IMG/VR virus record: IMGVR_UViG_3300033143_005857
Location: 12,387 to 76,386 of that record
DNA: 64,000 nt
Direction: 5' to 3' (one strand)
Source: a virus
Of this stretch, positions 22,809 to 64,000 are shown piece after piece; the first letter of the stretch is position 1, and each line of letters starts with the position of its first letter. The position numbers and the translations under genes were made by a program. The notes under the pieces are model-generated. The model saw nothing but the letters and a program-made list of their open reading frames with translations. It searched no databases and had not been told where the DNA came from.

Positions 22809-22827
22809 ACCGAAAAGCAGCTGATCT

Positions 22828-22883: not shown

Positions 22884-22985
22884 GTCTAAAAGCGAGAAGG
22901 TAAAATGATCCAAGCTAGGAAAGAAATGCTTGAATTTCGCTATCTCTCAGCCCAAAAAATAGGAAAAAAAAGTGGATTATACTAT

Positions 22986-39427: not shown

Positions 39428-39442
39428 ATCCCATCAACTTTA
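38428..39442. repeat. 27-bp direct repeats flanking the methyltransferase
   Basis: CTTTTTTACCATATCCCATCAACTTTA at 38428-38454 and 39416-39442. Confidence 0.85.
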
Positions 39443-39734
39443 TATGCTTGATTTTTGGTTCTTTTACTGGTATTTTACAATTTTTACATACTCCAGCAGT
39501 AATACTAACTCTTTTTTCTTTACAATAGCCGACAAGCTTCCATGTTTCCTTTACTTCGCTGCTTTCTTTACTATCAGTAAAAAATGGACAAAAAGGTAAT
39601 TTGGCTTTACAAACTGGACAGACTAACTTTCCTTCCTTATCTTGCGTGAAATTAAATGCTTCCTCTGTAAAACCGCACTTTTCACACGAATAGATGTTAT
39701 GTCCGTAATGTTTCATCGATATTCTTGTTGTCAT
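39408..39734 (-). CDS. zinc-ribbon protein
   Basis: CEKC...CPVC plus further Cys. Confidence 0.55.
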   Translation of the reverse strand: MTTRISMKHYGHNIYSCEKCGFTEEAFNFTQDKEGKLVCPVCKAKLPFCPFFTDSKESSEVKETWKLVGYCKEKRVSITAGVCKNCKIPVKEPKIKHIKLMGYGKKVN

Positions 39735-39998
39735 TTAATAAACCTCATAACTTCCTTTAATAAACGACCTTATTAGTATTATATAACCAATAATAATAAA
39801 GATAAATAATATTCCAATAGCACACAATATTATAATCCACCAACTATTTAATTCAACAAGTAAAAATAAATATCCGCTTTGATAATTATCAATTATTGTA
39901 AATAGTAGCAATGTAAACACAATAAAACTTAGTGCAACAAGACTACCAACCAAAACAAAAAACCAAGCAGCAACCAAATTATTTTTAAATTTAATCAT
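39735..39998 (-). CDS. membrane protein
   Basis: Two long hydrophobic helices. Confidence 0.55.
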   Translation of the reverse strand: MIKFKNNLVAAWFFVLVGSLVALSFIVFTLLLFTIIDNYQSGYLFLLVELNSWWIIILCAIGILFIFIIIGYIILIRSFIKGSYEVY

Positions 39999-40674
39999 TT
40001 TCTTGTTCTCCTATATCATCAAAGATAATTGGGATTAATGTTTGAAAATAGTTTAGAACTTCTAACATTATTTCTCTAATTTGTGGATGAGCGTATTTGC
40101 TTGTTCTCAGCTTAAGAATATGTCGCCACTCTGTAGGATTTGCACTTATTACAATATGTGTTTTAACATCAATTGGCAATACACCTCTTGCTTCTTGTGG
40201 AGTTTTACCTTCCTCTATTAATGTTTTGTAAGTAGATTCAGCAACAAGCATATTTTGCAGCCAATAGTGTGCTGGAGTAATAGGCTCATACATGAAATCT
40301 ATTGGCATATTGAGTTTTTGAGTTGCTTCTTTAATCCATAAAGGTTTGATAACAGTTAATTCTCTGTTATGTTTTTCCTTATTGTAATTGCAATAACGAG
40401 TGCTTTCTTGTGCATAACTTGCCAATCGATGTCTAACCAATTCGTGACTTAAACCACGATTACTAATTATATCAACTGTTATTAATCCACCATGCTCAAG
40501 CATAGCAAAATGCCCTTTAGCAACAAGGTCTTTGCATAATTTTTTATAACTGTTCTTAGTTATACGTTCCTCTGATTTATAGCAAACACGTGCTATTCGT
40601 TCAATTCTCTTAAGCATTTTTATACCGTCTAAGTCCTCATGTATAAACCAATTTTGCTCTATTACCTTTACCAT
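39991..40674 (-). CDS. thyX: flavin-dependent thymidylate synthase
   Basis: HELVRHR.ASY.QESTRY, ARGVLP, AHPQIR. Confidence 0.93.
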   Translation of the reverse strand: MVKVIEQNWFIHEDLDGIKMLKRIERIARVCYKSEERITKNSYKKLCKDLVAKGHFAMLEHGGLITVDIISNRGLSHELVRHRLASYAQESTRYCNYNKEKHNRELTVIKPLWIKEATQKLNMPIDFMYEPITPAHYWLQNMLVAESTYKTLIEEGKTPQEARGVLPIDVKTHIVISANPTEWRHILKLRTSKYAHPQIREIMLEVLNYFQTLIPIIFDDIGEQEND

Positions 40675-41538
40675 TTAATTCACAACTTTTTTGAAAGTTA
40701 ATACATATTCATGATATTTTACTGTTCTCCGCTGCTTTCGCACGGCATTATCTACTCCGCTCACAAATGGTGTTCGAATTACATTTATCACAACATCCCA
40801 TAATTCAAACCCAGCAGCCATGAAAAGTGTAATTGTATCGCCACTAAACCAGTGATATTTTCCATTTCGTCTAAAATCATTTACAACATAAGTGACAAAC
40901 TTGTTTGGTTTTAATATCTCATACAATATCTCAATTATAAAACCGTAATCAACCAAGAATGCTTCATACGTTTTAATGTCGCTTAGTTGTCCGTCGCAAG
41001 ACTCGTATCTCTCTACATTCCAATATGGAGGGCTTGTGTAGATGTAATCAAAGAACTCACTCAAATTACCATTTGTATCAAAATCTTTAGCGTCTCCAAG
41101 TGTTAGGTGGATATTTTTAGCCCATTCTTTGCCAGACGCAATAAGCTCTTTGACACGCTGGTCAACGTTATCGTAATAACTTTCAACAATTTCATTACCG
41201 TATCCTTGTCTACCAAAGTAAGCAGCAATAATACTTGTAGTTCCACGATTCATAAATGGATCTAAAACTTTATCCCCTTCGTCAGACCAAATCTGCAAGC
41301 AACGTTTAGCAATGTCTGGATTGAACTCAGAAAGTGGTTGTTTACCATTACCGTCTCGATATCGTTCCATACTATCATCTTTGACGAGCCGTGTCAATTC
41401 TTTTGATTTAGTAATATCCCATATACTTTTAGGGATATAACCATATCTGTCTTTGATCTTGCCTTCTGTAATAACAGTTTCCTTTCCAAGCAAGCCCTTA
41501 ATTTTCATTCGTTTTCCGTTTTTTATTAATTTTGCCAT
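40675..41538 (-). CDS. DNA methyltransferase (SPPY type, probably N4-C)
   Basis: VLDPF..RGT precedes TSPPY; HEYVL.FKK end. Confidence 0.85.
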   Translation of the reverse strand: MAKLIKNGKRMKIKGLLGKETVITEGKIKDRYGYIPKSIWDITKSKELTRLVKDDSMERYRDGNGKQPLSEFNPDIAKRCLQIWSDEGDKVLDPFMNRGTTSIIAAYFGRQGYGNEIVESYYDNVDQRVKELIASGKEWAKNIHLTLGDAKDFDTNGNLSEFFDYIYTSPPYWNVERYESCDGQLSDIKTYEAFLVDYGFIIEILYEILKPNKFVTYVVNDFRRNGKYHWFSGDTITLFMAAGFELWDVVINVIRTPFVSGVDNAVRKQRRTVKYHEYVLTFKKVVN

Positions 41539-44050: not shown

Positions 44051-44123
44051 CGGGAAAAGAGGGCTTTGAACCCTCACCTTCTCAGTGCTAACCAAGACGT
44101 GCAACCAAATACACTATTTTCCC
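44051..44123 (-). tRNA. tRNA-like gene with atypical anticodon arm (identity undetermined)
   Basis: Acceptor GGGAAAA/TTTTCCC+G, D arm GTGT/GCAC with GG, T arm GAGGG-TTCAAAG-CCCTC; anticodon arm 18 nt instead of 17. Confidence 0.7.
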
Positions 44124-46884: not shown

Positions 46885-47355
46885 TCACTTAGTTTTTGTT
46901 TTCTTTTTTGGGTTGTAAATTTTGTATTTTTCTAAACCTACAAAATCTTCATGGTCTACTTTAAGAACATGTGTCTTTACAGTTGTTGAAAACTTCTTTT
47001 TGTTTGATTCTCCACGCACAATTTGTGCAATCTTAAACCATTTTGGTTGAATTAAGATTATAATATTTTCAACAGCTTTAATTGGCGAAGCATGTGCTCC
47101 ACAACTGTAAATATCTATAGATACATATAGTTCTTCTGGATATGTATGCAGACATAAATGGCTTTCAGCTAACAGCAAATTAATAGAAACTCCTTGTGGT
47201 TGAAATTGATGCTCTGTTGATTTAATTAATTTGTTATTGCTTAACTCAACTGATTTAAAGCAATTTGTTAGCAAAGTTATTTTGTCATCTAATAACTTTG
47301 GTTTACATTGACATTCAAACAAATCCAATATTAGATGCTTTCCTCGTGTTATCAT
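46885..47355 (-). CDS. speD: S-adenosylmethionine decarboxylase proenzyme
   Basis: GKHLI.D, HQF.PQGVS, AESH..HTYPE, D.YSCG. Confidence 0.9.
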   Translation of the reverse strand: MITRGKHLILDLFECQCKPKLLDDKITLLTNCFKSVELSNNKLIKSTEHQFQPQGVSINLLLAESHLCLHTYPEELYVSIDIYSCGAHASPIKAVENIIILIQPKWFKIAQIVRGESNKKKFSTTVKTHVLKVDHEDFVGLEKYKIYNPKKKTKTK

Positions 47356-47522
47356 GGTAATTCAACCCTAAATTTAACACCACAAGCACCACAAATTAAC
47401 CAATTTGTTGCTGTTTCTTGAGGTTGTTGCATAATTGCTGATTTGCCACAATTTAAGCAATACTTTACAGCTTCTAACCCAAGATATTTGGTTGGTTTAA
47501 CTTTTGGTTTGTCTTCACTCAT
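47352..47522 (-). CDS. small zinc-ribbon protein
   Basis: CLNC...CGAC; likely start MSEDK. Confidence 0.5.
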   Translation of the reverse strand: MSEDKPKVKPTKYLGLEAVKYCLNCGKSAIMQQPQETATNWLICGACGVKFRVELP

Positions 47523-48447
47523 TTTCATCATCCTCGTTATTGTCATCCATAGATTCTGCCAATTGATTGTTAATATCTTCATCATCAACACCATCTACAG
47601 ATCCTTCACCGTCTTCTTGGCTATCTTCTTCAAGTTCGGTTGTAGCAAGGATGTAAACCAAGTTTATTTCTTCGGTTGTTTTTCTAATAATCATTGGTCC
47701 TTCATTACATAACCAGATTTCTATTTCTCCTTTGAGATTTCCAAAAGCATTACCAAATCCATAACTGTAAATGCTACCAATCGTTTCTTTTGTTTTAATT
47801 TCTTTAGCATTTAACTGTCGTCGGATTTTAGCACCACTTTCATCATCAGAAACAGTTACAAGAACATATTTTTCATAAACTGTTATAGGAAAGCTTCGAT
47901 ACTCGATTTGTTCACCGTCTTGCACTACTTCCATAAACTCTTCAGCATCAATTTTGATATATGTATCCAGCACCAATTCTCCAGCAGACCATGTATTTGT
48001 CTTTTTGCTAAATTTGAATGGTATATCAGCACTAACAGACGATGTCACAGTATCTAAAGCGATTGTTGGTAATTCAACTTCAAGCTTTGGTTTCACACGT
48101 TTGAATATAACTATATCAGTTCCTTCATCTTGAACATACCGCACAGTTATAGTTTCATCGTTTTTGAACCGTTTAATACCATTTACATGATTTTTTTTGT
48201 TTGTTTCATCTAAATCAAATGGAATGTTTCCAATTTCTTTCACCAAATCTTTCTTCATAGGTGCTTTAATCAAAGTAATAAGCACTTCGTTTTCGTCTAT
48301 CGCTTCTACTTTAATATTTGATTTGGATACATTCAGAATTAGGTCTTTGAGCATCGGCTTGTTTTCACCTTTAACCGTGCGTCCAATTGCTTGCACATAA
48401 CTAAAGATATTTTTTAAAATTCCAGCTTTAATATTAAACTTGGTCAT
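47515..48447 (-). CDS. DNA sliding clamp (PCNA-like, divergent)
   Basis: PCNA-like pattern (I.V.A.D...V.I, YS..F, P.II, YILA), acidic tail, next to polB, RFC present. Confidence 0.65.
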   Translation of the reverse strand: MTKFNIKAGILKNIFSYVQAIGRTVKGENKPMLKDLILNVSKSNIKVEAIDENEVLITLIKAPMKKDLVKEIGNIPFDLDETNKKNHVNGIKRFKNDETITVRYVQDEGTDIVIFKRVKPKLEVELPTIALDTVTSSVSADIPFKFSKKTNTWSAGELVLDTYIKIDAEEFMEVVQDGEQIEYRSFPITVYEKYVLVTVSDDESGAKIRRQLNAKEIKTKETIGSIYSYGFGNAFGNLKGEIEIWLCNEGPMIIRKTTEEINLVYILATTELEEDSQEDGEGSVDGVDDEDINNQLAESMDDNNEDDENE

Positions 48448-48451
48448 CGTT

Positions 48452-48880
48452 TTACTCCGTTGTAGCAAGCCCAATAGACACTGAAACAGAATAAGATGCT
48501 GCAATCTTCTTTGCTTCAAACATCTTCTCCAGTGCTTTCTTATCAACAACAGTGGAAATCATGTCTTTGCTTACTCCAAGATCTTCAGCGATTGTTTCAA
48601 GCTCTGCTTTTGTTTTACCATCATAATTACTTGTCACAGTAAGAGAGTGGTGTTCTGGCAATTTCCACTTAAGTTTCTTTGCCTCTTCAATATTCTCAGC
48701 AAGTAAAAAGGAATATTTACGTGTAAACTTAAGTCCGTGCAAGTCTCCTTTATATTCTTTTTCTGCTGCATATCCACGAATTTTTGCGTAATGCTTGTCC
48801 ATGTCCTTCTCTGCTTTTTTCTTAGCAATTTTGGCACTTCGAAACTTTTTACATGTTTCTTCAAATTCTTTATCATCCAT
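48452..48880 (-). CDS. hypothetical protein
   Basis: 142-aa ORF with VDKKAL motif. Confidence 0.55.
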   Translation of the reverse strand: MDDKEFEETCKKFRSAKIAKKKAEKDMDKHYAKIRGYAAEKEYKGDLHGLKFTRKYSFLLAENIEEAKKLKWKLPEHHSLTVTSNYDGKTKAELETIAEDLGVSKDMISTVVDKKALEKMFEAKKIAASYSVSVSIGLATTE

Positions 48881-49500: not shown

Positions 49501-50604
49501 CTACAACAAATCTTTGAACAAGTCAATCAAATCAGAAAATGTTGGATTCCCAGTTAATTCATAACTTCGTCCTTTCATGTTTTCTGTTTCAAACCGACTG
49601 TCAATTACACGTAATGTTCTAATTGTTTCTTTGTCGTCTCCAGAGCCGATTGTTTCTTTCTCATAACGAGCAATAACATCAACCCAGTAATCGCTGCCTT
49701 TTAGCACTTCTGAAATTTGATTTCCAGTCTTGTATCCGTCCATTGCACCAGAACCAGAAGAAGCCCACTCATCCTTGGTTTGAGCCACGAGTATAACGTT
49801 CATGTTGATGTTGCGTAAACGTCGTAAGAAGCTTTTAACCTTTTTTGTTCTCCACTTATACTGAATTGGGATTGGTTTTTTCTTTTCCTTTCCGTCATCA
49901 TCAAATCCGATACCAAGAATTTTATCAACCAATTTGAAATAAGCCCAATCACAGTAATCGCTAAAATTGTCAATAACGAGCGTGCCTTGTTCGTCGTCTG
50001 ATAAGGCATAAGCCCATTCTTCCAATTCTTCAATAGATTTTGTTGGGTCTATTTCTTTAGTTATAGGATTTTCAACGAAGCAGTTATGTATGATGATATT
50101 ACCTCCATCGATATGTTCTGGAAAATTGAAATCTGCTTCGTCTTCGCTTGCATTTTCTGTATCTAATACATAGATTGGATGTCCCGCTGGTATAATACGA
50201 CGTTTACCTTCAAATCCATCAAAGTCTGCTGGAGTAAAAGTGAAGTTAGTTTTACCAACCTTAGATCCACCATCAAGCAAAATTACAAGCCCTTTCTTGC
50301 GTTTTCCTCGATCTTTATTGTCAATCCTTGCTTGATCCCACGTATCTTCTTTGCTTCGCAATACACGTGCTTTAACCTTTCCAGTTCTAAGTTTTTTCTT
50401 CCATCCAGCAACTTTAACGTCTTCTGGTGGAGTTGCTTCAGATACTGGTGTTTTCTTGATTACTGTGGTTGGTTTAGTGGTTGCAACGCTAACAATCTTT
50501 TTTGTGCTTCCAACAACACGTTTTGTGACTGTTTTTTTCATTCCTTTTTTTACTATTGTTTTTTTCTTGGTTGTTTTTTTAGTTCTTGGCTTTCTAACTA
50601 CCAT
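49501..50604 (-). CDS. AAA_24/Sak4-like RecA-fold ATPase
   Basis: GGSKVGKT, LDTE, LVIDN, NVILVAQ; Lys-rich N-terminal extension. Confidence 0.7.
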   Translation of the reverse strand: MVVRKPRTKKTTKKKTIVKKGMKKTVTKRVVGSTKKIVSVATTKPTTVIKKTPVSEATPPEDVKVAGWKKKLRTGKVKARVLRSKEDTWDQARIDNKDRGKRKKGLVILLDGGSKVGKTNFTFTPADFDGFEGKRRIIPAGHPIYVLDTENASEDEADFNFPEHIDGGNIIIHNCFVENPITKEIDPTKSIEELEEWAYALSDDEQGTLVIDNFSDYCDWAYFKLVDKILGIGFDDDGKEKKKPIPIQYKWRTKKVKSFLRRLRNINMNVILVAQTKDEWASSGSGAMDGYKTGNQISEVLKGSDYWVDVIARYEKETIGSGDDKETIRTLRVIDSRFETENMKGRSYELTGNPTFSDLIDLFKDLL

Positions 50605-51956
50605 TTTCCATCTTCCTCTTCGGTTTCGTCTGCAGCATCATCGTCAGAATCAATTGTGTCAGTTTCATCTATGATTGGGTCAACAGTTCCTTCTGCTTCG
50701 TGGTTATCTTCTGTTCCACCACTTTCATCTTCGATGTCTTCTGGCTCAACTAAATCTTTAACGATAATACCGCTAACTTGGATGCTCGGTCGTCCCATTT
50801 CGTCCAGCACTTCGTTAGTAGCCATATCTTTCTTAAGGCTTGCACTCGTTTTACCAAACATAATAACAGTGCTGTATTTACCGAAACCAAACTCAAAGTT
50901 TGGATTTATCCAACAGTTTACTGATTCAAGGATGTCTTCACTGTCGTCATCACCAAATCCAAGCGATTCATCATCAATAAGCATTCGATGGTTATTATCA
51001 TTATCACTTTCAATAATATCAATTACTTGCCCTTCAGTAACAACAATACGATTGCAAAATTGCCGTGTGCCGTCAGCGTTTTCTTCCATAAAAGAGTCAT
51101 GATATTCTTGCAGTTCTCCAAGCGGAACATAGAAATTTGCAAAGTGTTCTGGAATTGAGTCTAAATCAAGTTCCAAATCTTCCATTAAGTTCCATTTTGT
51201 TACAGTAGTTGCATTAAGTTCCCATGATTCTTCGTTGTCTTTGCTTGTCTTATTTGTAGCCTTTGATTTATACCATTTACCAAGATCAAACCCAGCACCT
51301 ACAAATGATTTACCAGTAGGGTCTGCAAGTCTACCACTTATGGTCATTTCAAAAGGACGCAATTTTTCATCATCAATTGTTAAAAATGATTCACCAGTAT
51401 CCTCATCTATTGCTTTTTTGTTGAGAGGAGCACCTAATCCACCAATTGTCATAATGTAGGCATGTTCTGGCAGAGGTTTGCCAAAATTCCTATTATCCTT
51501 TCCAGCTTTTGTTTTTGGTCGCTCGTCAATTGGTATTACAGTTTTCTTTCCCCTTGAATCCCTATCAATCCTTACAAGCTTTTTCTTTTTTGCTTCTGCT
51601 GGATTTTTGGAATGAGCGTCAATATTTGCCTTATACCGTCTTGCACCGTAATCAAATGGATCACCAGCATATAACGGTGCGAGTCCCCAAGGAGCTGCAG
51701 ATGACCGTGTTTCGTTTTTATATTTTCCGTATAGATTTCGTCTCGCTGTCGCAAAGCATTTCTGCTTAGTCCAACGTTCTCCGTGTTTTTCCTGCAATTC
51801 GACTGCAATTGCTTGCAGTTCTGCTTCAAGAACCTCTACTGGACGTTTCATTTTTCTTGCCCAGCCAGTTAAGAAGGTTGTATCATACTCATCCTTCTTT
51901 TTGGTTGTTTTCTTTTTAGCAGTTGTTTTCTTTTTCGTTGTTTTCTTTTTAGCCAT
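50598..51956 (-). CDS. putative ssDNA-binding protein (OB folds)
   Basis: Adjacent to Sak4-like ATPase; acidic C-tail; Lys-rich N-tail. Confidence 0.45.
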   Translation of the reverse strand: MAKKKTTKKKTTAKKKTTKKKDEYDTTFLTGWARKMKRPVEVLEAELQAIAVELQEKHGERWTKQKCFATARRNLYGKYKNETRSSAAPWGLAPLYAGDPFDYGARRYKANIDAHSKNPAEAKKKKLVRIDRDSRGKKTVIPIDERPKTKAGKDNRNFGKPLPEHAYIMTIGGLGAPLNKKAIDEDTGESFLTIDDEKLRPFEMTISGRLADPTGKSFVGAGFDLGKWYKSKATNKTSKDNEESWELNATTVTKWNLMEDLELDLDSIPEHFANFYVPLGELQEYHDSFMEENADGTRQFCNRIVVTEGQVIDIIESDNDNNHRMLIDDESLGFGDDDSEDILESVNCWINPNFEFGFGKYSTVIMFGKTSASLKKDMATNEVLDEMGRPSIQVSGIIVKDLVEPEDIEDESGGTEDNHEAEGTVDPIIDETDTIDSDDDAADETEEEDGKW

Positions 51957-55512: not shown

Positions 55513-55770
55513 CTAATCAATAATACTGTTTATTATCTTAATGTTCGCACGTTTGAGCCCTAATTCATCAATAACAACGTCAATCATTTCTACAAAGCTA
55601 AAAGGCGATTGCTTAAGCCATCTTGTATAAACGTCGTCCATCTTCGCCTTAATAATGCAAACGTCCATATCCGTTTCAACAAATGTCTCTAAATAACCGT
55701 CGTTTTCGTCGTTTTCGTCTGGGTTATCTAAACCATATTTCGTGATAAACCGTAATTTTAATGTCGCCAT
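55513..55770 (-). CDS. hypothetical protein
   Basis: 85-aa ORF. Confidence 0.5.
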   Translation of the reverse strand: MATLKLRFITKYGLDNPDENDENDGYLETFVETDMDVCIIKAKMDDVYTRWLKQSPFSFVEMIDVVIDELGLKRANIKIINSIID

Positions 55771-55771
55771 G

Positions 55772-56041
55772 TTAATCAGCCGTTTTTATTTCTTCCATAC
55801 AACTCTTTAGGTTATGTAATGAAAGCCTAAATTTGTTGTGGATATCGTATGGAATCGGAGTGTTTTCCGTGCTTTTTACAAATAGTTCATACATCTTAAT
55901 CATCGTGGCTTTTCTATCTAAGCCAGTTCCGTCGCAAAATGCACATGGATAGTCGTCGTGCGTTCCTTCTTCTAATCCAGTGCCGTTGCAAGCAGAACAC
56001 TCAATTTTATGAGAGTCTTTGCTCATTTCTGTTTTCCACAT
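55772..56041 (-). CDS. DnaJ-type zinc-finger small protein (cassette ORF)
   Basis: CSACNGTG...CAFCDGTG; ATG abuts repeat copy 1. Confidence 0.65.
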   Translation of the reverse strand: MWKTEMSKDSHKIECSACNGTGLEEGTHDDYPCAFCDGTGLDRKATMIKMYELFVKSTENTPIPYDIHNKFRLSLHNLKSCMEEIKTAD

Positions 56042-56128
56042 TGATTTAACACCTTCTAAGCATTACGTGCTTAGTTTACGTGATTGCACCGAAATGGTGC
56101 AACCATACCGTAAAAAAGGAAAAAAGTA

Positions 56129-56329
56129 TTACTGTTTTCCATAAATTTTGATGTTTTCTTGTTGATCTTTTTCGTAATAAATTGAAAACATTAAACTTGT
56201 TTGAAATGCCTTCATTTTGTCAGTCATAATAAGTCCGCTGTGCCAAGCAGCAGCAATCAAATTTCCAACGTGTTCTTTGATTTTGTCGTATGCGTCTGCT
56301 TTCTCTTTATCTGTTGTTAATCGTTGCAT
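56129..56329 (-). CDS. cassette ORF, hypothetical
   Basis: Fills the space between repeat copies 1 and 2. Confidence 0.7.
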   Translation of the reverse strand: MQRLTTDKEKADAYDKIKEHVGNLIAAAWHSGLIMTDKMKAFQTSLMFSIYYEKDQQENIKIYGKQ

Positions 56330-56419
56330 TTTTTACACCTTTTTAGCAGCATAACGTGCTGCATTTACGTCCAAATCAGTATCTCTGGTTTGAATACCGT
56401 AAAAAAGTTAAAAAAGTAG

Positions 56420-56662
56420 TTATTTGTTAAGTTTGTCTTCTATTTTGGTCATTGTATCAATTGGAAGTTCGCTAACATGCAGCAAACCAATCAATCGGTA
56501 AAAGAAACGTTGCATATTAGTAATTCGTGCAGTAATCTCTGCAACTTTCATCCCGTTAGGAGAGTTCATATAACATTCGGTCAGTGAACACAAATCTGTC
56601 ACGTCTTCTTGTGTTAGGCTTATTTTCACAGTTTTATCATGTGTTAAATGTTTGAATTTCAT
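56420..56662 (-). CDS. cassette ORF, hypothetical
   Basis: Start corrected to MKFKH after the repeat RBS. Confidence 0.7.
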   Translation of the reverse strand: MKFKHLTHDKTVKISLTQEDVTDLCSLTECYMNSPNGMKVAEITARITNMQRFFYRLIGLLHVSELPIDTMTKIEDKLNK

Positions 56663-56750
56663 AAATTTACACCAGTTTGGTGGCTGTCGTGCCACCATTT
56701 ACGTGATTGCACCGAAATGGTGCAACCATACCGTAAAAAGTAAAAAAGTA

Positions 56751-56957
56751 TTACTTTGTTAAAAATAACCCGTCCAATAAACCAACCAAATACCAATATG
56801 CTTCATTTGTATAAAGCGTTTTAGTAATTGCTGATCCAACCCTAAACTGCCACATTTTTTTATCTCCAGCGGTCCAAACGTCTTGCGTGTATACGTTTTT
56901 AAAACCTTTATCGATAAATTTTTGTAATAAATTTTGTATCATTTTTGTCGTTGTCAT
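56751..56957 (-). CDS. cassette ORF, hypothetical
   Basis: Own GGTGA RBS; third gene of a 3-gene cassette. Confidence 0.65.
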   Translation of the reverse strand: MTTTKMIQNLLQKFIDKGFKNVYTQDVWTAGDKKMWQFRVGSAITKTLYTNEAYWYLVGLLDGLFLTK

Positions 56958-56970
56958 GTTTTTTCACCAA

Positions 56971-57195
56971 CTATCTCTTTTCTAAAAAAAACTGTGTTAA
57001 TGCTACCGTAATTCCAAGCGTATAACCACGCTCAAATAACTTTTCAGCATAGTGATAAGCCCACTTTAGTGTCGAAGCATTGTAAAATGATGCTTCACAG
57101 CTTAAATTTGTGCCAACAACAATATATTTTTGCTGTTTGGTTGGTTTCTGAATCATAAACACCTTTTCGTTAATTTGCTTATCAGCCATGCTCAT
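56971..57195 (-). CDS. cassette ORF, hypothetical
   Basis: ATGA overlap with the upstream gene. Confidence 0.6.
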   Translation of the reverse strand: MSMADKQINEKVFMIQKPTKQQKYIVVGTNLSCEASFYNASTLKWAYHYAEKLFERGYTLGITVALTQFFLEKR

Positions 57196-57560
57196 AACCT
57201 TTTAAGCACTGATTGGTATTTTTCAACAAGTCCATTGTAAACCGCTGTTGCTTTTCTGTAATCTGCGTCTGCTTCCCTAATCAAAGCCTTGTAATATTTT
57301 TTAAAGCAGCTTTTACAGTAGCTTTCACCACCATCTACCACTTCAACATCGTCAATATCAACAATTGTTTTACAATCAAAGCATACAGCCCAATCGTCTG
57401 AATTTTTGTGCGATGGGCATACTTCAAAGCACTTTTCGTCTTTGCATTCGTATAGTTCAACGTCGTCGTCTGTTGGCAAACCGAGTTTTTTACGTGTATT
57501 AATACACGCTCGAAATCTGGTCTCTTCGCCACGTTTGTCATGTTCTTCCCATGTTCCCAT
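57192..57560 (-). CDS. cassette ORF, zinc-finger protein
   Basis: CFDC...YCKSC. Confidence 0.7.
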   Translation of the reverse strand: MGTWEEHDKRGEETRFRACINTRKKLGLPTDDDVELYECKDEKCFEVCPSHKNSDDWAVCFDCKTIVDIDDVEVVDGGESYCKSCFKKYYKALIREADADYRKATAVYNGLVEKYQSVLKRL

Positions 57561-57649
57561 AATTTTTCACCTATTTACTGGCGTCGTCGCAGCCAGTTTT
57601 ACGTGATGATTTGGAATTCAAACCATCATACCGTAAAAAGTAAAAAAAG

Positions 57650-58066
57650 TTAGCCATACATAACTTCGCCAAATAAGGCTAACTGCAAAAAGCAATCAGC
57701 GGTTTCAGCATCTGCATTATCACCAATTAAATTAAGTGCTTGGCGATGCATCCGCTTGCCGTCCTTAGTCCGCATTTTTAGTAAACGTTCCACACCACGT
57801 CGCACAGCAGCATAGTCAAGCGTGTATTCTGCACCTTCGCTGTCGTTTGGGTCTTGGTCTGTAATAATTAAACTTCCACCATTTAGCACAATATCGTGCA
57901 TAAATCGGTCGCTTTCGTGCTTTTTATTTTTACGCACTATGCTATACCAGTAATTACTGCCACCTTCCAAAGCAGAAGCAATTAAACTGCTAACTTTGTC
58001 GTATCCAATAACAATAGGCTGCATTATATCAAACACAAATGCTTCGGTTTTTTCCATTGTTCCCAT
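57650..58066 (-). CDS. cassette ORF, phage-type hypothetical protein
   Basis: ALEGGSNYW...DAETAD.FLQ.ALFGEV.YG. Confidence 0.7.
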   Translation of the reverse strand: MGTMEKTEAFVFDIMQPIVIGYDKVSSLIASALEGGSNYWYSIVRKNKKHESDRFMHDIVLNGGSLIITDQDPNDSEGAEYTLDYAAVRRGVERLLKMRTKDGKRMHRQALNLIGDNADAETADCFLQLALFGEVMYG

Positions 58067-58152
58067 GATTTAACACCTTCTAAGCATTACGTGCTTAGTT
58101 TACGTGATTGCACCGAAATGGTGCAACCATACCGTAAAAAAGGAAAAAAAAG

Positions 58153-58356
58153 TTATTTGCTTAAAAAATCATTAAGCAAAGCGTTATCGATCTTTTTATA
58201 CAAAAAGGTCTGTGCTGGGTCGTGCTGATTTCCATATTGCTCCAACATTGCAACCGCTTCTTCTGGGCTGTCCACGTATATCATGTGAACTCGCTTGCGA
58301 ACTCGGTTTTTAAACTTTAATAAATAAAGTTTTAATTTAACATCGTTTTTTCCCAT
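58153..58356 (-). CDS. cassette ORF, hypothetical
   Basis: Start corrected to MGKND. Confidence 0.65.
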   Translation of the reverse strand: MGKNDVKLKLYLLKFKNRVRKRVHMIYVDSPEEAVAMLEQYGNQHDPAQTFLYKKIDNALLNDFLSK

Positions 58357-58443
58357 AGTTTTACACCTTTTACAAGCCATACGTGCTTGTTTTACGTAAT
58401 TGTAGCGATATGCTGCAATTATACCGTAAAAAGTAAAAAAGTA

Positions 58444-58815
58444 TTACAAATTGTCGTTGTTTAGGTCTCTAACTGCTGTTTCTATCCAATTAATTGCTTG
58501 TTCTACAGTATCTTTCAAGTCTTCGCCAGATTTAACACCAATTTTAAGCAATACAACGGTTTCTTCTAATATTTTGGTCACGTGTATTTGTTTGGCTTTA
58601 TCGTCTGTTTTTGGCTGCAAAATCGTTAAGCATTCCAAGTCTTCACTACAATCCCAGCAAGATATTTGGTAATCCCACTCGCTCGCTGCAAATATTGGCG
58701 TCATTGCTGATTTTTCCATTTTTTTATCCTTAACACACAGTTTGCAGTAAACTGCACCATTTTCGTCAGTATAACCAACGATATCGGCTGCATTCCATAA
58801 GTTGCTTTTTCCCAT
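58444..58815 (-). CDS. cassette ORF, zinc-finger protein
   Basis: Start corrected to MGKSN; YCKLC...PIF...EWD...CWDC. Confidence 0.7.
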   Translation of the reverse strand: MGKSNLWNAADIVGYTDENGAVYCKLCVKDKKMEKSAMTPIFAASEWDYQISCWDCSEDLECLTILQPKTDDKAKQIHVTKILEETVVLLKIGVKSGEDLKDTVEQAINWIETAVRDLNNDNL

Positions 58816-58906
58816 GTTTGTTTTACACCTTTTTGGTGGCTGTCGTGCCACCATTTACGTGCTATAAGCGATTTGCTTGTAGCATACCGTAAAAAGTAAA
58901 AAAGTA

Positions 58907-59110
58907 TTACTGTGTTGCGAAAAATGTATGCAACTGGTTTAATAGGTCAAATGCAAAGCGAAGGGCAAACATCTTAGCGATATAAGCCATTAACTCCCTT
59001 AGTTCTCCAGTAAATACTGGTCTTGGGTTGCTATCGGCAATAAACAACTGATATCTTGTTGATTCACCAAAGTAAACGGTGATATTGTTGGTTTCTGCTA
59101 TTTTTTCCAT
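58907..59110 (-). CDS. cassette ORF, hypothetical
   Basis: Bounded by copies 7 and 8. Confidence 0.65.
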   Translation of the reverse strand: MEKIAETNNITVYFGESTRYQLFIADSNPRPVFTGELRELMAYIAKMFALRFAFDLLNQLHTFFATQ

Positions 59111-59197
59111 ATTTTATTACACCTTTTAGCAGCCACCGTGCTGCTATTTACGTAATTGCAGCGATATGCTGTAATTATACCGTAAAAAGTAAAAAAG

Positions 59198-59455
59198 TTA
59201 AACCATATTAATTTTAAGGCTGTATACGTTGTCTTCGTCGAAGTTATTAAGGTTTTCCGCTTCTTGCTCCATAAAATCCCATAATAAAGCAACGATTTTA
59301 GGCACTTCGGTCCACTGAAACTCGCAATCCAGCGTTAAAGTAATGTTCTTAGCAAATGTTAGCCCTAAGATACGCTTTCGGGCAAACTCGACGTTGGTAT
59401 ACCAAAAACTTTTGTCTTTGATACAAAATCCGATAAATTGGGTTAAGTTATCCAT
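59198..59455 (-). CDS. cassette ORF, hypothetical
   Basis: Start corrected to MDNLT. Confidence 0.65.
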   Translation of the reverse strand: MDNLTQFIGFCIKDKSFWYTNVEFARKRILGLTFAKNITLTLDCEFQWTEVPKIVALLWDFMEQEAENLNNFDEDNVYSLKINMV

Positions 59456-59545
59456 AGTTTTACACCTTTTTGGTGGCTGTCGTGCCACCATTTACGTGAT
59501 TGCACCGAAATGGTGCAACCATACCGTAAAAGTGTTAAAAAAGTA

Positions 59546-60079
59546 TTACTTTGTTGTGTTTTTTAACCACGTATTAACGTCTGTTAGGCTTTCCAGTATA
59601 AATTTAAGCGTTTTACTATGGTTTGCATGATTATACTTACGCTCTAAGCTTTTTTTAACAGTAGCAACCATGTCGTTTGTTATTTCTAATATTTCTACTA
59701 TTTCTGGCTTATTTATTGCTACAAAATTAAAACTTAGGTTGTCCCACTCTTTTCTGTAGTTTAAATTAACCAGTTTAGCATTTGCAAACAAATTGGTAAA
59801 TGCTACATAGTTTTCAAACGTATAACCGTCGTAATAATCCACGTCGATACAAACCCTTAACTCGTTTAGTGTTGGGTTAAAATCTATTTGCGATAACCCG
59901 CACATAAACCACTGTGTTTTATACAACTGTGCCAATTCGCCAAAATGCTGCATAATTTGGTCTTTATATTGCAGTAAATTGTGTCCGCTGTTGTAAACGT
60001 TTTTGCCGTCAACTTTCTCGCAAATTGCAGTGCTTCTTTGCAAGAAAGCATTAAACTCTGTTGTGTCTTGGTTTTCCAT
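59546..60079 (-). CDS. cassette ORF, hypothetical
   Basis: Bounded by copies 9 and 10. Confidence 0.7.
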   Translation of the reverse strand: MENQDTTEFNAFLQRSTAICEKVDGKNVYNSGHNLLQYKDQIMQHFGELAQLYKTQWFMCGLSQIDFNPTLNELRVCIDVDYYDGYTFENYVAFTNLFANAKLVNLNYRKEWDNLSFNFVAINKPEIVEILEITNDMVATVKKSLERKYNHANHSKTLKFILESLTDVNTWLKNTTK

Positions 60080-60165
60080 GTTATTTTACACCTTTTACAG
60101 CCATACGTGGCTGTATTACGTGCTAACAGCGTTGTGCTGCAAGCATACCGTAATAAAGTAAAAAA

Positions 60166-60477
60166 TTAATGGAATTTAACCATTACAGTAATGTCTTCGC
60201 CAATATAGCCACGATTTAGGCTAAATGTTAGGTTGTAAACTTCCGTGTCGCCATAGTGGGCTTTGATTTTGTTGGTTTCTGCTTCTTTAAGCAGCGGTCC
60301 GTGTTGGTGGTCACGTATGCTAAAATTGCGTAAAACAGCGTAAACCATAATATTGTTTGCACTTCTTAGGCTAAATTCATAGGAATGCACAGTAGCAAGC
60401 CCAGTTCCATGTTTCTCAACGAGTTTTTTAACTTCGTCGCAGCAAAATGTTTTAAACTCTTTTGTGTATATGTCCAT
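60166..60477 (-). CDS. cassette ORF, hypothetical
   Basis: Start corrected to MDIYT. Confidence 0.65.
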   Translation of the reverse strand: MDIYTKEFKTFCCDEVKKLVEKHGTGLATVHSYEFSLRSANNIMVYAVLRNFSIRDHQHGPLLKEAETNKIKAHYGDTEVYNLTFSLNRGYIGEDITVMVKFH

Positions 60478-60565
60478 GTTTGTTTGCACCTTGTTGCAGC
60501 ATACGTGCTGCATTTACGTGCTATAAGCGATTTGCTTGTAGCATACCGTAAAAGGTAAAAAAGTA

Positions 60566-60895
60566 TTAAATTAACCGCTTAACAAATAGCGGTGATATTT
60601 TGTAAATTATAAGTTTTCCAATTGATTCTTGCCTTAAATTAGCACATTTGTCGGTAAAGTTAAATCTGTAAAACTGTGTTGCTGCTTTACCAGTTAAAAG
60701 CAATGTATCGCCAGTATCCAACATTGTGTCGGCTGTTGGGCAATATGCCATTAAATCTTCCACATAAATTAAAATGCCAGTTGTTTTTAACGTCATTAAG
60801 CGTTGTGCTGCAAGCAAATGTAATGTTGCTGCACCAAATAGTTGTTCTTGGTCTAATCGCTTAATAACATCCTTTAATGTTGCTGTTTTTTGCAT
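60566..60895 (-). CDS. cassette ORF, hypothetical
   Basis: Bounded by copies 11 and 12. Confidence 0.65.
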   Translation of the reverse strand: MQKTATLKDVIKRLDQEQLFGAATLHLLAAQRLMTLKTTGILIYVEDLMAYCPTADTMLDTGDTLLLTGKAATQFYRFNFTDKCANLRQESIGKLIIYKISPLFVKRLI

Positions 60896-60985
60896 AATTT
60901 ACACCTTTTAGCAGCCAACGTGCTGCTATTTACGTGCTATAACCGATTTGGCTATAACATACCGTAAAAAGTGGTTAAAAAAGCA

Positions 60986-61150
60986 TTAACTATACAGAGC
61001 AATTGCTTGCTGCTGTGCGGTTTGAACCGCTTGGATTGGCTTGGTTGTAGGCTGTTGTTTACCAATTGCTTTAAACATGCTAACATAATGTATAACAGTG
61101 TGTTTAATTGGTAAATAAATGTTAAAATTAACTGTAATTGGTTTTTCCAT
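60986..61150 (-). CDS. cassette ORF, 54 aa (not in ORF track)
   Basis: MEKPITVNFNIYLPIKHTVIHYVSMFKAIGKQQPTTKPIQAVQTAQQQAIALYS; fills the space between copies 12 and 13. Confidence 0.6.
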   Translation of the reverse strand: MEKPITVNFNIYLPIKHTVIHYVSMFKAIGKQQPTTKPIQAVQTAQQQAIALYS

Positions 61151-61243
61151 GTTTGTTTACACCTTTTAGCAGCATTACGTGCTGCTATTTACGTATTGGG
61201 TGCTAAATGCAGCCCAATATACCGTAAAAAGTTAAAAAAGTTA

Positions 61244-61582
61244 TTAATTGCTGTTAAATTTGCCGTTGTAATAATAACGGGTTGTTGTTTTTGTGCCTTC
61301 TGCTAAGCCCTTTAAGTATTTTGGGTATAACCAACTGTTGCACGCACCAGCGGCACGTGCTTGGTAGCCAATAAGCACACCGTTTACATAAGTAAACCGT
61401 GCAGCAAAGTGTTGGGCTGCAATAAAACGTTCAAAATGCACCATGCTTGCAACACGTGCCTTTTCCGTGTGTTGTAGTTGTGCAGCAACGTAAATAAGCG
61501 TGCTCCGCAATTCTGCAACGTCGTTGTATTTTGTGGCATTTATAATTAATGCCGCTAAATCGCTGTTATTTAATATTTCCAT
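61244..61582 (-). CDS. cassette ORF, hypothetical
   Basis: Bounded by copies 13 and 14. Confidence 0.65.
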   Translation of the reverse strand: MEILNNSDLAALIINATKYNDVAELRSTLIYVAAQLQHTEKARVASMVHFERFIAAQHFAARFTYVNGVLIGYQARAAGACNSWLYPKYLKGLAEGTKTTTRYYYNGKFNSN

Positions 61583-61661
61583 GTTATTTTACACCTTTTA
61601 CAAGCCATACGTGCTTGTTTACGTGGTTGCAGCGTTGTGCTGCACCCATACCGTAAAAGTG

Positions 61662-61949
61662 TTAAAAAAATTGCTGTATAATTAGGTGGGCTGCTTGCTC
61701 ATAGTTATCCACCATTTCGTTGGCTGCACTGCTTAATGCAACAGTTTGGCTAATAAACGGTATTAGCGGGTGTTTTACAACGTGTTTATACAATGCAGCC
61801 AAGCAATAACCAACTTTGCCGCTTGTATAAAACTTTGCCAGCCTATTGTGCTGGTATTTGGGGTCGTCCGTGCATTCTAAGCAGTGGTTTACATAATTGC
61901 TTAGTAAACTGTTTGCTGCATTAATTTGGGTTATATTTAGTTTTTCCAT
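61662..61949 (-). CDS. cassette ORF, hypothetical
   Basis: Stop codon lies in the T-tract of copy 14. Confidence 0.65.
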   Translation of the reverse strand: MEKLNITQINAANSLLSNYVNHCLECTDDPKYQHNRLAKFYTSGKVGYCLAALYKHVVKHPLIPFISQTVALSSAANEMVDNYEQAAHLIIQQFF

Positions 61950-62027
61950 GTTATTTTACACCTTTTAGCAGCCAACGTGCTGCATTTACGTGCTAAACGC
62001 TAAATGCGGTTAGCATACCGTAAAAAG

Positions 62028-62369
62028 TTAAAAAATAATGTATTTTAAGCCACTAAAAGCCATGCTACACGTTGGTGTGCTAAGCGTTTGCGTGTTAAAG
62101 TTAATAGTAATTGCCACAAACGGCTTGCGTGCTGGGTAGTTAAGCACATCCACCACACTGTGAAAACCAGCACGTAAATGCTGTTTTTGGCTGCCAGTTA
62201 ATAGGTTTGCAGTAAACTGCTTTGCTTTAAGCACTGTGGTGGGTGTATATTGTAATTGCCGTAATTGGTTTACCACGTGCTTGTATAAGGCTTGTGCGTT
62301 GTTATGCACAAATGCACGCACAACACCGCTGTTGTTATAAATTTTTAATATTACTGGTTGTTTTTCCAT
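62028..62369 (-). CDS. cassette ORF, hypothetical (1 Asp, 1 Glu)
   Basis: Bounded by copies 15 and 16. Confidence 0.65.
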   Translation of the reverse strand: MEKQPVILKIYNNSGVVRAFVHNNAQALYKHVVNQLRQLQYTPTTVLKAKQFTANLLTGSQKQHLRAGFHSVVDVLNYPARKPFVAITINFNTQTLSTPTCSMAFSGLKYIIF

Positions 62370-62460
62370 GTTTGTTTACACCTTTTAGCAGCATTACGTG
62401 CTGCTATTTACGTATTGGGTGCTAAATGCAGCCCAATATACCGTAAAAGTGTTAAAAAAG

Positions 62461-62835
62461 TTAAACCATTTTAATTATTTGCCCAATAAATTGGTTAATT
62501 TGGTAATACAGCATGCTGCTTGCTGGGCTGTATAAGTGCATACTGTATAAATGCTGCACCAGTTTGCACGCTTGCCATACAGCAATAAGTTGCTGCTTGC
62601 TAAGCATAATTTTAGGGCTTGGTTTAAACGGGCTAATAAATGGTGTTAATTGCTGTAAAACGCTGTTAATTACCGCTATTTGCCCTACCGCTGTAAATAT
62701 TTGTTTGCCAACTAAATGGCTAATTAAACCGTTATTAACGTGGTGGAAACTATTATTGCCTTGTTTTACTGCTGTTTGCAACACGTTAATTGCACCAATT
62801 AAGTGCATTTTAGGTATTTGTAATGTATATTGCAT
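62461..62835 (-). CDS. cassette ORF, hypothetical (no Asp, Glu or Arg)
   Basis: Bounded by copies 16 and 17. Confidence 0.65.
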   Translation of the reverse strand: MQYTLQIPKMHLIGAINVLQTAVKQGNNSFHHVNNGLISHLVGKQIFTAVGQIAVINSVLQQLTPFISPFKPSPKIMLSKQQLIAVWQACKLVQHLYSMHLYSPASSMLYYQINQFIGQIIKMV

Positions 62836-63018
62836 GTTATTTTACACCTTTATGCTGCAGCGTGCAGCATTTACGTGCTAAACGCTAAATGCGGTTAGCA
62901 TACCGTAAATAAAAAAGTAAACGTTGTTTGCTGTATTTGCACACAGCAGCCCAGTAGGGCTGTATTACGTGGTTGCAGCGTTGTGCTGCACCCATACCGT
63001 AAAATAGTGTTAAAAAAG

Positions 63019-63318
63019 TTATAATACAGCAAATAACTGCTGTTTAAACTGTGCAAGCGTGCTGCACCATTTAGTGCCTACATAATTGCCTTTAATGCCA
63101 ATGCCACCACTATACAAATGTATGGCTGTTTGCCCAGCCTTACGGTGTTGGCTGCCATACTTTTTGTTATTGTGGTAAAAATCCACGCAAATGTTTGGGT
63201 TTAAACGCACCATTAAAGCAGTGCCGTTGCAGCGTGCAATATGCTGCACCTTAAGCGTTTTTACAACAAAAATATAAATTGTTTTTTGCTGTTGGGTTAG
63301 GTTTGTTAGTTTTACCAT
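63019..63318 (-). CDS. cassette ORF, hypothetical (1 Asp, no Glu)
   Basis: Bounded by copies 18 and 19. Confidence 0.65.
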   Translation of the reverse strand: MVKLTNLTQQQKTIYIFVVKTLKVQHIARCNGTALMVRLNPNICVDFYHNNKKYGSQHRKAGQTAIHLYSGGIGIKGNYVGTKWCSTLAQFKQQLFAVL

Positions 63319-63408
63319 GTTATTTTACACCTTTTACAAGCCATACGTGCTTGTTTACGTGGTTGCAGCGTTGTGCTGCACCCATACCGTAAAAGTGTTA
63401 AAAAAGGG

Positions 63409-63798
63409 TTAAAAATAGGTTGCTACATTAATTTTAACTGCTTGCGTTATTTGCTTGGCTGTGCTGCCTTGTGCCAATGCTAAGCAGTTAATAAACAGTT
63501 GTGGCAAATCTGCAACCACATTAAGCATACTGGTTGCTGGGTTGCTGGTTTGTGCTGCCATACTGTTGGCAAACTGCATAATTTGGTTTAATACAAATAC
63601 ATGCTGTGGTGGGGTTAATTTGGCTATTAATTGCACTGCCAAATTATAAATAATACTGCTGGTTTGTGGTGCTGGGCTTTTAGGGCTGCCACTATTTACG
63701 TTGCACCAGTTAATAAAGCTGTTTAACTGCACCCAATTGGTTTGTTTACCAACCCAATAAGCCAGTTTTATGTTATTTACTGTAATTGTTGTTTGCAT
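63409..63798 (-). CDS. cassette ORF, hypothetical (1 Asp, no Glu)
   Basis: Bounded by copies 19 and 20. Confidence 0.65.
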   Translation of the reverse strand: MQTTITVNNIKLAYWVGKQTNWVQLNSFINWCNVNSGSPKSPAPQTSSIIYNLAVQLIAKLTPPQHVFVLNQIMQFANSMAAQTSNPATSMLNVVADLPQLFINCLALAQGSTAKQITQAVKINVATYF

Positions 63799-64000
63799 TT
63801 TTTACACCTTTAACAGCCATACGTGGCTGTTGCACGTGGCTAAAACGCTGGGTTTTAACCATACCGCACGGTGTAATGCCGTAATAGCTGCCATACATGT
63901 TAAGTGCCTTTAACTATGCCGCACGGCTTAAATTACAAGCCGTTTGCTACTGCTAAATTGCCATGCTAAGTTTATTTATACAGCCGTTGCATGCAAATTA

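Follow-up and report, generated by a model that had tools for sequence, protein, structure and literature searches.

In a probable archaeal virus, the dinucleotide step GA/TC is nearly absent from one block of the genome, and the manner of its replacement indicates that selection on the nucleic acid itself maintains this depletion. The virus is represented by the record IMGVR_UViG_3300033143_005857, a single contig of 76,386 bp. The window, which is the whole 64,000-nt stretch that was analyzed, is the right-hand 64 kb of this record and ends at the contig end. Coordinates are given either for the full record (genome) or for the 64,000-nt stretch (window), and GA/TC designates one duplex step, 5′-GA-3′ on one strand and 5′-TC-3′ on the other. 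The first and last 114 nt of the contig are identical, and the record is classed by IMG/VR as having direct terminal repeats. From the window, the purge continues through this repeat to genome ~2035, at the left end of the record; in the other direction, it weakens gradually over ~7 kb of an array of small genes.

Over window 62001-64000, the odds ratios are 0.02 for GA and 0.03 for TC, compared with 0.96 and 0.97 over window 1-55000. GA/TC is the sole dinucleotide step lost from window 62-64 kb, where GC (odds ratio 2.26) and TG/CA are raised. When counted in 1-kb bins, the last two kilobases of the window contain 2+2 and 0+2 GA/TC against about 118 expected in each, and the step is at expectation in the genome outside the array region. 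The deep core extends from window 62370 to genome 2035. Its 3,552 nt contain 14 GA/TC against 414.7 expected, and mononucleotide shuffles of the core gave a mean of 414 with a standard deviation (s.d.) of 16 and a minimum of 359. For the control set, 120 unrelated IMG/VR loci (1.03 Mb), which were chance matches of a pattern search with the leader unit described below, yielded 3,707 windows of 1 kb. The ratio of observed to expected GA/TC in these windows has a mean of 1.01 (s.d. 0.15) and a minimum of 0.41; it goes down to 0.017 in the present genome. The longest run free of GA/TC is 951 nt here, compared with a maximum of 98 nt in the 1.03 Mb of unrelated viral DNA.

In the core, every NGAN context has been lost; the avoided unit is the 2-bp step itself, unlike a restriction-modification site, which has 4-8 bp and is usually palindromic. 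The survivors lie mainly in TGGAAA, which accounts for half of the surviving deep-core GA, in a single orientation. The depletion is present on both strands, in coding DNA, in leader sequences and in ~2 kb of DNA poor in open reading frames (ORFs). A first-pass annotation of the window had noticed it by manual counting, and its counts stand. The three GA/TC reported for window 62370-64000 were found by exact recounting at 62746, 63182 and 63509. For window 61200-62370, where about 18 had been reported, 18 were counted, and 16 of these are the GA of Asp or Glu codons on the minus coding strand. The statement that the step is common at 56-58 kb and elsewhere holds for the rest of the genome, but the plus-strand GA odds ratio is already 0.38 over 56-60 kb. 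In the array, the coding-strand equivalent of plus-strand GA is TC.

The array occupies window 55.5-63.8 kb and consists of 22 small minus-strand ORFs, about 20 of which are preceded by a repeated unit. All are directed away from the junction of the contig ends, and they are presumably early genes. Along the array, the step is lost in a defined order. Frame-resolved counts show that coding-strand TC is already rare at 55.5 kb, and that GA in xGA codons and across codon junctions becomes scarce over 57-61 kb. In the graded zone (window 57192-61150), avoidable GA/TC (codon junctions, xGA/xTC codons and TCN serine codons) are progressively lost while Asp and Glu codons are retained. In the next zone (window 61151-62369), the surviving GA are essentially those of Asp and Glu codons; from window 61244 on, the GA/TC observed equal the count forced by these residues, with 0-1 extra per gene. 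From window 62028 on, Asp and Glu themselves vanish, and together they make up 0-2% of residues versus 12.9% in the other proteins of the virus. The part of the deep core that lies at window 62370-63886 spans three complete genes with their leaders and contains 3 GA/TC in total. The right copy of the 114-bp direct terminal repeat (window 63887-64000) contains none, and the purge runs on into genome 1-2035.

Resampling of synonymous codons, using the virus's own codon usage, gave z-scores of +0.5 to -0.7 for the first six genes (55.5-57.2 kb), with one gene at -2.1. The z-scores are about -1 to -5 over 57.2-61.2 kb, -5.5 to -5.9 in the zone of window 61151-62369, and -5.5 to -6.9 for the last six genes. 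Amino-acid composition, which the first-pass annotation had named as an unlikely explanation to be checked by such a codon-shuffled control, does not explain the depletion. It was rejected as the cause, as non-coding DNA and both strands are purged; the shift in amino-acid composition is a consequence of the purge.

The genes at the purged end of the array are all on the minus strand. The outermost one (window 63409-63798) encodes 129 residues with 1 Asp, 0 Glu, 21% Gln+Asn and an isoelectric point (pI) of 9.6; its frame is open beyond chance (P ~0.0007). The gene at window 63019-63318 encodes 99 residues with 1 Asp and 0 Glu (pI 10.1). That at window 62461-62835 encodes 124 residues devoid of both Asp and Glu (pI 9.95), and its 10 serines are all encoded by AGY. 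A single-sequence AlphaFold2 model of this product is mostly helical, with four helices and two short strands (mean predicted local distance difference test score 66, predicted template modeling score 0.57). The gene at window 62028-62369 encodes 113 residues with 1 Asp and 1 Glu, the latter directly after the start codon (pI 10.2), and the short gene at window 60986-61150 encodes 54 residues with 0 Asp and 1 Glu. Two array genes (window 61244-61582 and 61662-61949) encode 6-7% Asp+Glu; their other GA/TC are essentially nil, with one extra in the first.

Asp makes up 0.6% and Glu 0.4% of the five acid-poor proteins taken together, and each makes up 6.4% of 23 other viral proteins. Gln is 3.5-fold and His 2-fold as frequent, Arg is reduced to 0.3-fold, Lys is unchanged, all serines have AGY codons, and the pI values are 9.6-10.2. 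Given the local stop frequency, each of these ORFs is open at P ~0.001-0.004 (joint 4e-12), the other frames containing 5-14 stops. Two of the proteins recur on other contigs, and that of window 62461-62835 is recorded on two contigs. Judged by their reading frames and recurrence, the acid-free ORFs are real, maintained genes. No homologue beyond the same virus was found for the three acid-free proteins encoded at window 63409, 63019 and 62461, nor for the first of these among 1.8 billion representative proteins. There is no paralogy among the array proteins, and they have no matches in the loci of relatives. Pfam and PHROGs searches with 20 array proteins returned a weak zinc-ribbon match and one family without known function, and no nuclease domain.

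In the unpurged or weakly purged part of the array, strongly acidic proteins (15-21% Asp+Glu, pI 4.4-5.2) are encoded on the minus strand at window 55513-55770, 57192-57560, 57650-58066 and 58444-58854; one of them is Cys-rich. They could be candidate anti-defence proteins of the DNA-mimic type, made after the acid-free ones.

On the other side of the terminal repeat, genome 1-2035 contains only short low-complexity ORFs and is essentially non-coding. It has 11 GA/TC, none of which lies in genome 1-573. This left arm displays a G+T-rich strand, palindromes, and iterons GGGCTGGAAA with ~92-nt spacing on the plus strand. The iterons GGGCTGGAAA at genome 570-850 contain surviving TGGAAA, and they could be putative terminase or origin binding sites retained despite the purge. 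An AT-rich, origin-like palindrome with G/C clamps is found at genome 1652-1720 and, in inverted orientation, at window 22825-22893. The purge has an abrupt edge, as the GA/TC frequency is back to normal within ~100 nt at genome ~2035-2130. Downstream are a small ORF, the gene of a probable small terminase, and TerL (genome 4396-6024). At the edge, genome 2059-2180 forms an element (AAAAAAGCCA.TGCA, a G-run and GTCGTCCGA) that is conserved in the closest relative (L002:200-330). A GATC cluster follows it, with three GATC within 20 nt in this genome. This element could serve as a putative signal for packaging or cleavage, or mark where the late operon starts.

The position of the physical ends can be modeled in two ways. 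A length of 114 bp is unusual for an assembler k-mer and fits a linear genome with a short terminal repeat; short terminal repeats are carried by distantly related haloarchaeal myoviruses of the same size. If the 114-bp repeat forms the ends, the array begins ~120 nt from the right end and reads inward, and the 2-kb non-coding block lies at the left beside the terminase genes. First entry then accounts for the array arm but not for the left arm. Both arms would be accounted for by a process tied to the ends, such as spacer capture at free ends or nucleolytic processing. Alternatively, the physical end is the conserved abrupt edge at ~2.04-2.17 kb, in which case the whole block is one contiguous leading segment and the abruptness is explained naturally. 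Under either model, the block is the junction of the early-type and packaging modules. The location near a genome end, on which the earlier explanation depended, agrees with where the genome ends and the packaging site would be predicted from the sequence: the block spans the terminal repeat, adjoins the terminase genes, and its graded arm follows array transcription.

Repeat analysis of window 56034-63886 revealed an array of about 20 leader units of ~85 nt on the minus strand, one before each small gene. In each unit, a T-run is followed by an ACGGTAT motif and a first hairpin, and then an ACGTAAA motif by a second hairpin and the Shine-Dalgarno sequence GGTGT. The RNA folds with z-scores of -2.5 to -6.9 into a three-helix structure with covarying stems, the outer helix of which pairs with the Shine-Dalgarno sequence; the paired segments are ACACUUUU and AAAGGUGU. 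GGTGT is present in every unit, and several other genes of the virus have GGTGA or GGAGG. From this predicted fold, the same RNA structure, or a factor binding the ACG(G)UA motifs, may gate the translation of every array gene. Along the array, the number of GA/TC per unit drops from 4-8 to 0 and the fold is retained. The switch of hairpin loops noted earlier, from GAAAT, GATAT or GATTT to TAAAT, GTTGT or GCTGG, is seen. A pattern search of IMG/VR with the leader unit returned single chance matches only. The listed ORFs at window 56420-56698, 58444-58854 and 59198-59491 (minus strand) open with a shared peptide, MVARQPP. As this peptide is the leader hairpin GGTGGCTGTCGTGCCACC read as protein, the true starts are probably downstream ATG codons.

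The replacements that have occurred in the purged DNA distinguish selection from mutation. Across paralogous copies, GA is replaced by TA, GT, GC or GG, and TC by AC or TG, rather than by AA or TT. At the loop position that reads GA in 7 of 7 upstream leader units, the purged units have TA (4), GT (2), GC (1) or GA (1), and AA in no case. Another GA column has changed to GC, GG or AT and a TC column to AC, with the helices remaining complementary. The palindrome copy in the purged block differs from its twin at window 22.8 kb at every compared GA/TC step of the bulk copy, by transversions or rearranged bases and not by C-to-T changes. In the outermost genes, the Glu codon after the start (ATGGAA) has become a Gln codon (ATGCAA). 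AA and TT are not enriched, with odds ratios of 1.44 and 1.15 versus 1.40-1.49 and 1.13-1.16 in the neighboring zones. As this is not the spectrum of cytosine deamination, it is selection that maintains the purge. The first-pass annotation had offered the footprint of a TC-specific cytosine deaminase, which would have converted TC to TT (and GA to AA) on exposed DNA without any selection for avoidance. Enzymes of the APOBEC3 and DddA types act preferentially on TC, and TC depletion is known as a footprint in some human viruses (PMC7449416, PMC4999249). However, the replacements in the leader units and the palindrome are the wrong ones, AA and TT show no enrichment, Glu has been exchanged for Gln and not for Lys, ORFs and hairpins are intact, and a depletion of ~97% far exceeds published footprints. 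The deaminase footprint was rejected as largely refuted, and is almost certainly not the explanation.

It is also very improbable that the early transcripts, rather than the DNA, evade a dinucleotide-specific defence such as a CmdT-like ADP-ribosyltransferase acting on single-stranded RNA or a HEPN RNase that prefers certain dinucleotides. CmdT ADP-ribosylates the A of GA in mRNA and blocks translation (PMC11618068), and the messages of the last array genes are nearly devoid of GA. CmdT is proof that chemistry for a GA-specific defence exists, and it would select for GA-free messages. But GA and TC, which are one step in duplex DNA, are two unrelated words in RNA, and UC is lost from the messages as well, before GA, so that two separate RNA specificities would be required. 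In addition, both strands are purged over ~2 kb in which there are no convincing genes, and the published CmdTAC system is triggered late, by a capsid protein, and acts on the RNA of one strand. Given that UC disappears from the messages first and GA last, and that the ORF-poor 2 kb is purged, one DNA-level reader, of the duplex or of either single strand, can replace two RNA readers. Targeting of RNA only was rejected, the purge being strand-symmetric instead of specific to the message strand, and including non-coding DNA.

The structural genes of the virus include those of a sheath and a baseplate wedge. Its replication genes encode PolB, a homologue of the large subunit of archaeo-eukaryotic primase, an RFC-like clamp loader, a PCNA-like clamp, an XPF/ERCC4-HhH protein and ThyX. 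There are also two N6/N4 methyltransferase homologues, an S-adenosylmethionine (AdoMet, SAM) decarboxylase, and PD-(D/E)XK and ERCC4 nucleases in the replication module. The best matches of PolB are haloarchaeal tailed viruses, at 26% identity. This set of replication and structural genes points to a tailed virus of archaea, which it probably is. Among GenBank phages, there was no nucleotide match, and only distant matches of PolB and TerL were found (22-27% identity). Searches of IMG/VR with a single protein or a profile returned no TerL relative, and 185,579 species genomes contained no provirus and no TerL or AdoMetDC relative. TerL homologues were found in metagenomes only, including relatives at 61-64% and 51% identity; one relative is in the Loki's Castle marine-sediment assembly.

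For the closest relative with available DNA (L002, 74% TerL identity, from a different sample), the sequence begins 1.8 kb upstream of its TerL gene. GA/TC is absent from the initial 228 nt (0 against 27.6 expected, P ~1e-12), and the normal frequency resumes at its edge element, where the G-run, GTCGTCCGA and the GATC cluster align with the edge in the present genome. This relative avoids the same words as the present virus. A relative with 65% identity (L003) has 9.3 kb upstream of TerL without purge, and different avoided words; another with 71% identity has no purge in the 2.8 kb available. These comparisons indicate that the purge is heritable but lineage-specific, and that it travels with a particular restriction environment.

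Avoidance of short words is pronounced in the bulk genome (window 1-55400 and genome 2200-12500). CTAG occurs once versus 108 times expected, GTAC once versus 146, and CAGG/CCTG twice versus 165; GGCC, CCGG, CGCG and GCGC are each absent versus 17-29 expected. CGTAG, GTWAC, CATATG, GTTAAC, GTGCAC and CCATGG are nearly or entirely missing. With words at 0-2 copies versus 17-165 expected, restriction-type avoidance, which the first-pass annotation had invoked, is clearly a major force in this virus. Word avoidance is its principal response to defence acting on DNA, and the cost of each site appears to be higher in the junction block. The words avoided by relatives are GGCC and AGCT in L003, ACGT and CATG in L004, and GATC in L006 and L007.

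The reading that is tentatively preferred, with a confidence somewhat short of even, is that the DNA exposed first escapes recognition by an activity that reads a 2-3-bp element at the DNA level. About 8.7 kb across the junction of the genome ends is written without the GA/TC step, this domain comprising ~2 kb of non-coding DNA beside the packaging genes and the promoter-proximal two thirds of the early-type array. The loss proceeds from non-coding and synonymous sites to AGA, CGA, GGA and TCN codons, and finally to Asp and Glu, replaced mainly by Gln, His and Asn. Presuming that it enters first, this block would be the earliest and the longest exposed DNA after infection, at a time when viral counter-measures are still to be made. 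The host activity would act on DNA through a 2-3-bp element containing TC/GA. As the virus deletes words of 4-6 bp without touching amino acids, and yet gives up Asp and Glu in the block, such a reader would have to use 2-3 bp.

The candidate reader ranked first is spacer capture or interference by clustered regularly interspaced short palindromic repeats (CRISPR) through a TC-type protospacer adjacent motif (PAM). Restriction or phosphorothioate families built on GA/TC half-sites come next, and then a TC- or GA-specific enzyme that would modify or cut single-stranded DNA. The restriction-modification, phosphorothioate and DarT-type activities proposed in the first-pass annotation are thus candidate readers. 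In PMC6546361, which cites Modell 2017, free ends of first-injected viral DNA are given as the preferred source of CRISPR spacers. Dinucleotide PAMs are read by archaeal type I systems (PMC3025118), and archaeal phosphorothioation marks d(GpsA) (PMC6459918). The element avoided here is of PAM type, being 2-3 bp long and removed from both strands. By analogy, CRISPR adaptation or interference via a PAM would be the best-fitting known system. It is possible, though rather doubtful, that an undescribed host activity, be it an immune reader or a CRISPR system with a TC-type PAM at the entering end, acts via the GA:TC step alone, and that the virus answers with 5-9 kb and five proteins rewritten.

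A stronger defence penalty in the block would also produce extra avoidance of AGCT and GGCG in the core. The AGCT ratio is 0.36 in bulk versus 0.06 in the core, and that of GGCG/CGCC is 0.83 in bulk versus 0 against 10.9 expected in the core; these differences were found post hoc among ~100 words, which weighs against the preferred reading along with several other points. With the 114-bp repeat as physical ends, the 2-kb part lies opposite the array, and first entry alone is insufficient. The gradient is uneven from gene to gene in the resampling z-scores, and the history of the gene cassettes may contribute to it. GA/TC is normal in the other 65 kb (odds ratio 0.96-0.97), requiring the bulk to be fully protected in another way. 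Restriction requires the loss of specific 4-8-bp words only, as the rest of the genome shows. We know of no prokaryotic DNA-level defence documented to make every GA/TC step a liability.

Other explanations relate the purge to the virus's own activities or to the physical properties of its DNA. The strongest of these, which is unlikely but accounts for part of the data, is that the virus marks its own DNA at GA/TC, and that the junction block is free of the step and enters unmarked. Such an exemption could serve unhindered immediate-early transcription or protein binding, or escape from modification-dependent restriction. The marker would be one of the two N6/N4 methyltransferase homologues, or an unrecognized enzyme. 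Two N6_N4_Mtase genes are present, and the nearest solved relatives of the first include MboIIA, CcrM, DpnA and RsrI, which methylate A in GA-containing sites. None of the fully avoided bulk words contains GA/TC, and GATC (0.68) and TCGA (0.80) are largely kept; that words containing the step are kept and others avoided fits protection of GA/TC sites by a mark. However, palindromic hexamers with and without GA/TC are kept alike (medians 0.65 versus 0.67, P = 0.49), and surviving AGCT sites are barely enriched for flanking GA/TC (34% versus ~27% expected). Nor does this explanation predict that AGCT and GGCG are additionally purged from the core. Family searches of the virus proteins found no DpdA/TGT homologue and no ThyA-type hydroxymethylase. 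The large unannotated replication proteins that were examined are not modification enzymes: that of window 47515-48549 (minus strand), without Pfam match, is a PCNA-like sliding clamp by structure, with template modeling (TM) scores of 0.68-0.86, and that of window 50598-51956 (minus strand), also without Pfam match, weakly resembles OB-fold/RPA-like proteins (TM below 0.5). Simple methylation, finally, would not be expected to impede transcription to a degree that justifies the loss of Asp and Glu.

An improbable alternative, a variant of the two-step entry of T5, is self-immunity to an early nuclease of the virus that would cut TC/GA and, having minimal specificity, would shred host DNA. Only the segment already inside the cell would need to be immune, which it would be by lacking the target, and the rest of the genome would enter or replicate after the activity is shut off. 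It would explain the dinucleotide-level specificity and the confinement to one block, and a terminal block of many small homologue-less genes, each with a promoter-like unit, is compatible with it. T4 endonuclease IV, which cuts single-stranded DNA 5′ of dC with a preference for TC and is used against host DNA, provides a model. But a nuclease domain was found in 0 of the 20 array proteins searched, the recognizable nucleases (PD-(D/E)XK and ERCC4) lie in the replication module, and two-step entry would have to be presumed. The avoidance of many ordinary restriction words by the closest relatives would be left unexplained. Hardly any probability is given to the possibility that GA/TC loss is the by-product of a DNA shape required for packaging, ejection, an origin, or archaeal-histone wrapping or exclusion. 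The core has a 10-11-bp AA/TT and GC periodicity that is absent from bulk, and its non-coding part has the G+T-rich strand, iterons and palindromes. This periodicity is nevertheless weak (autocorrelation 0.05-0.12), no known structural code excludes one step to 3% of expectation, and the gradient tracks codon cost instead of helical phase.

That DNA entering early avoids the targets of defence systems is not a new idea. As in the restriction-site avoidance of phages and in the leading regions of T7 and T5 (first-step-transfer DNA), which are poor in sites, selection has removed words, most strongly in a terminal block of small genes read inward, which are presumably early here, and the rest of the present genome avoids 4-6-bp words completely. 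Unlike in these cases, the unit here is a 2-bp step, Asp and Glu are paid as a cost, the loss is graded over kilobases, and first entry is presumed. Escape at the level of dinucleotides occurs in viruses of eukaryotes, as in the depletion of CpG against ZAP. As with TC and APOBEC3 (PMC7449416, PMC4999249), a host dinucleotide reader would shape the viral composition. That escape is partial and extends over genomes or gene classes, whereas the depletion here is ~97%, is confined to one block of a probable archaeal virus and has a spectrum other than that of deamination. PAM-dependent CRISPR acquisition (PMC6546361, PMC3025118) has in common with the purge a 2-3-bp element, every occurrence of which is a liability, and a decay with distance from the entering end. 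It differs in that the PAM depletion reported in phages is weak, and in that the residual TTCC/GGAA would not be spared by a TTC PAM. Context-dependent DNA modification (dPreQ0 at GA in CAjan-type phages, Mom, thymidine hypermodification) also has a two-letter context as its unit. In contrast, the present virus has no deazaguanine or hydroxymethyl-pyrimidine pathway genes, only methyltransferase homologues, and its block is graded and includes non-coding DNA. Literature searches found no precedent for the purge of a single dinucleotide, 97% complete over 3.5 kb, graded by codon cost and resulting in acid-free proteins. To our knowledge, no dinucleotide purge of this kind has been published.

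Should the preferred reading be true, a DNA-level reader with a resolution of 2 bp would take part in the conflict between archaeal viruses and their hosts, either as a novel defence or as a novel effect of one already known. There could be a general, unrecognized class of early domains hidden by dinucleotide avoidance, and the end of uncultured viral genomes that is exposed first could be located from sequence alone. The gradient is a rare quantitative record of nucleotide-level selection overriding protein composition, through synonymous sites, codon choice, and then amino acids. Natural proteins that are folded and maintained nearly without acidic residues, and that would use essentially an 18-amino-acid alphabet lacking Asp and Glu, are relevant to protein design and to questions about reduced alphabets. 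If instead the block is exempt from a viral mark, a context-specific DNA mark would exist in an archaeal virus without any known hypermodification pathway.

Some further features of the minus strand are found outside the array. The two N6/N4 DNA methyltransferase homologues flank ThyX within window 38411-41538, and the second has its motifs in an order permuted from that of the Pfam model. ARAGORN detected a tRNA-like element, its anticodon undetermined, at window 44051-44123, where it overlaps the end of PolB. At the other end of PolB, the gene of the AdoMet decarboxylase, which is of the pyruvoyl type (window 46885-47355), overlaps the PolB start by 4 nt. This enzyme may supply polyamines, deplete SAM against methylation-dependent host systems, or provide an aminopropyl donor.

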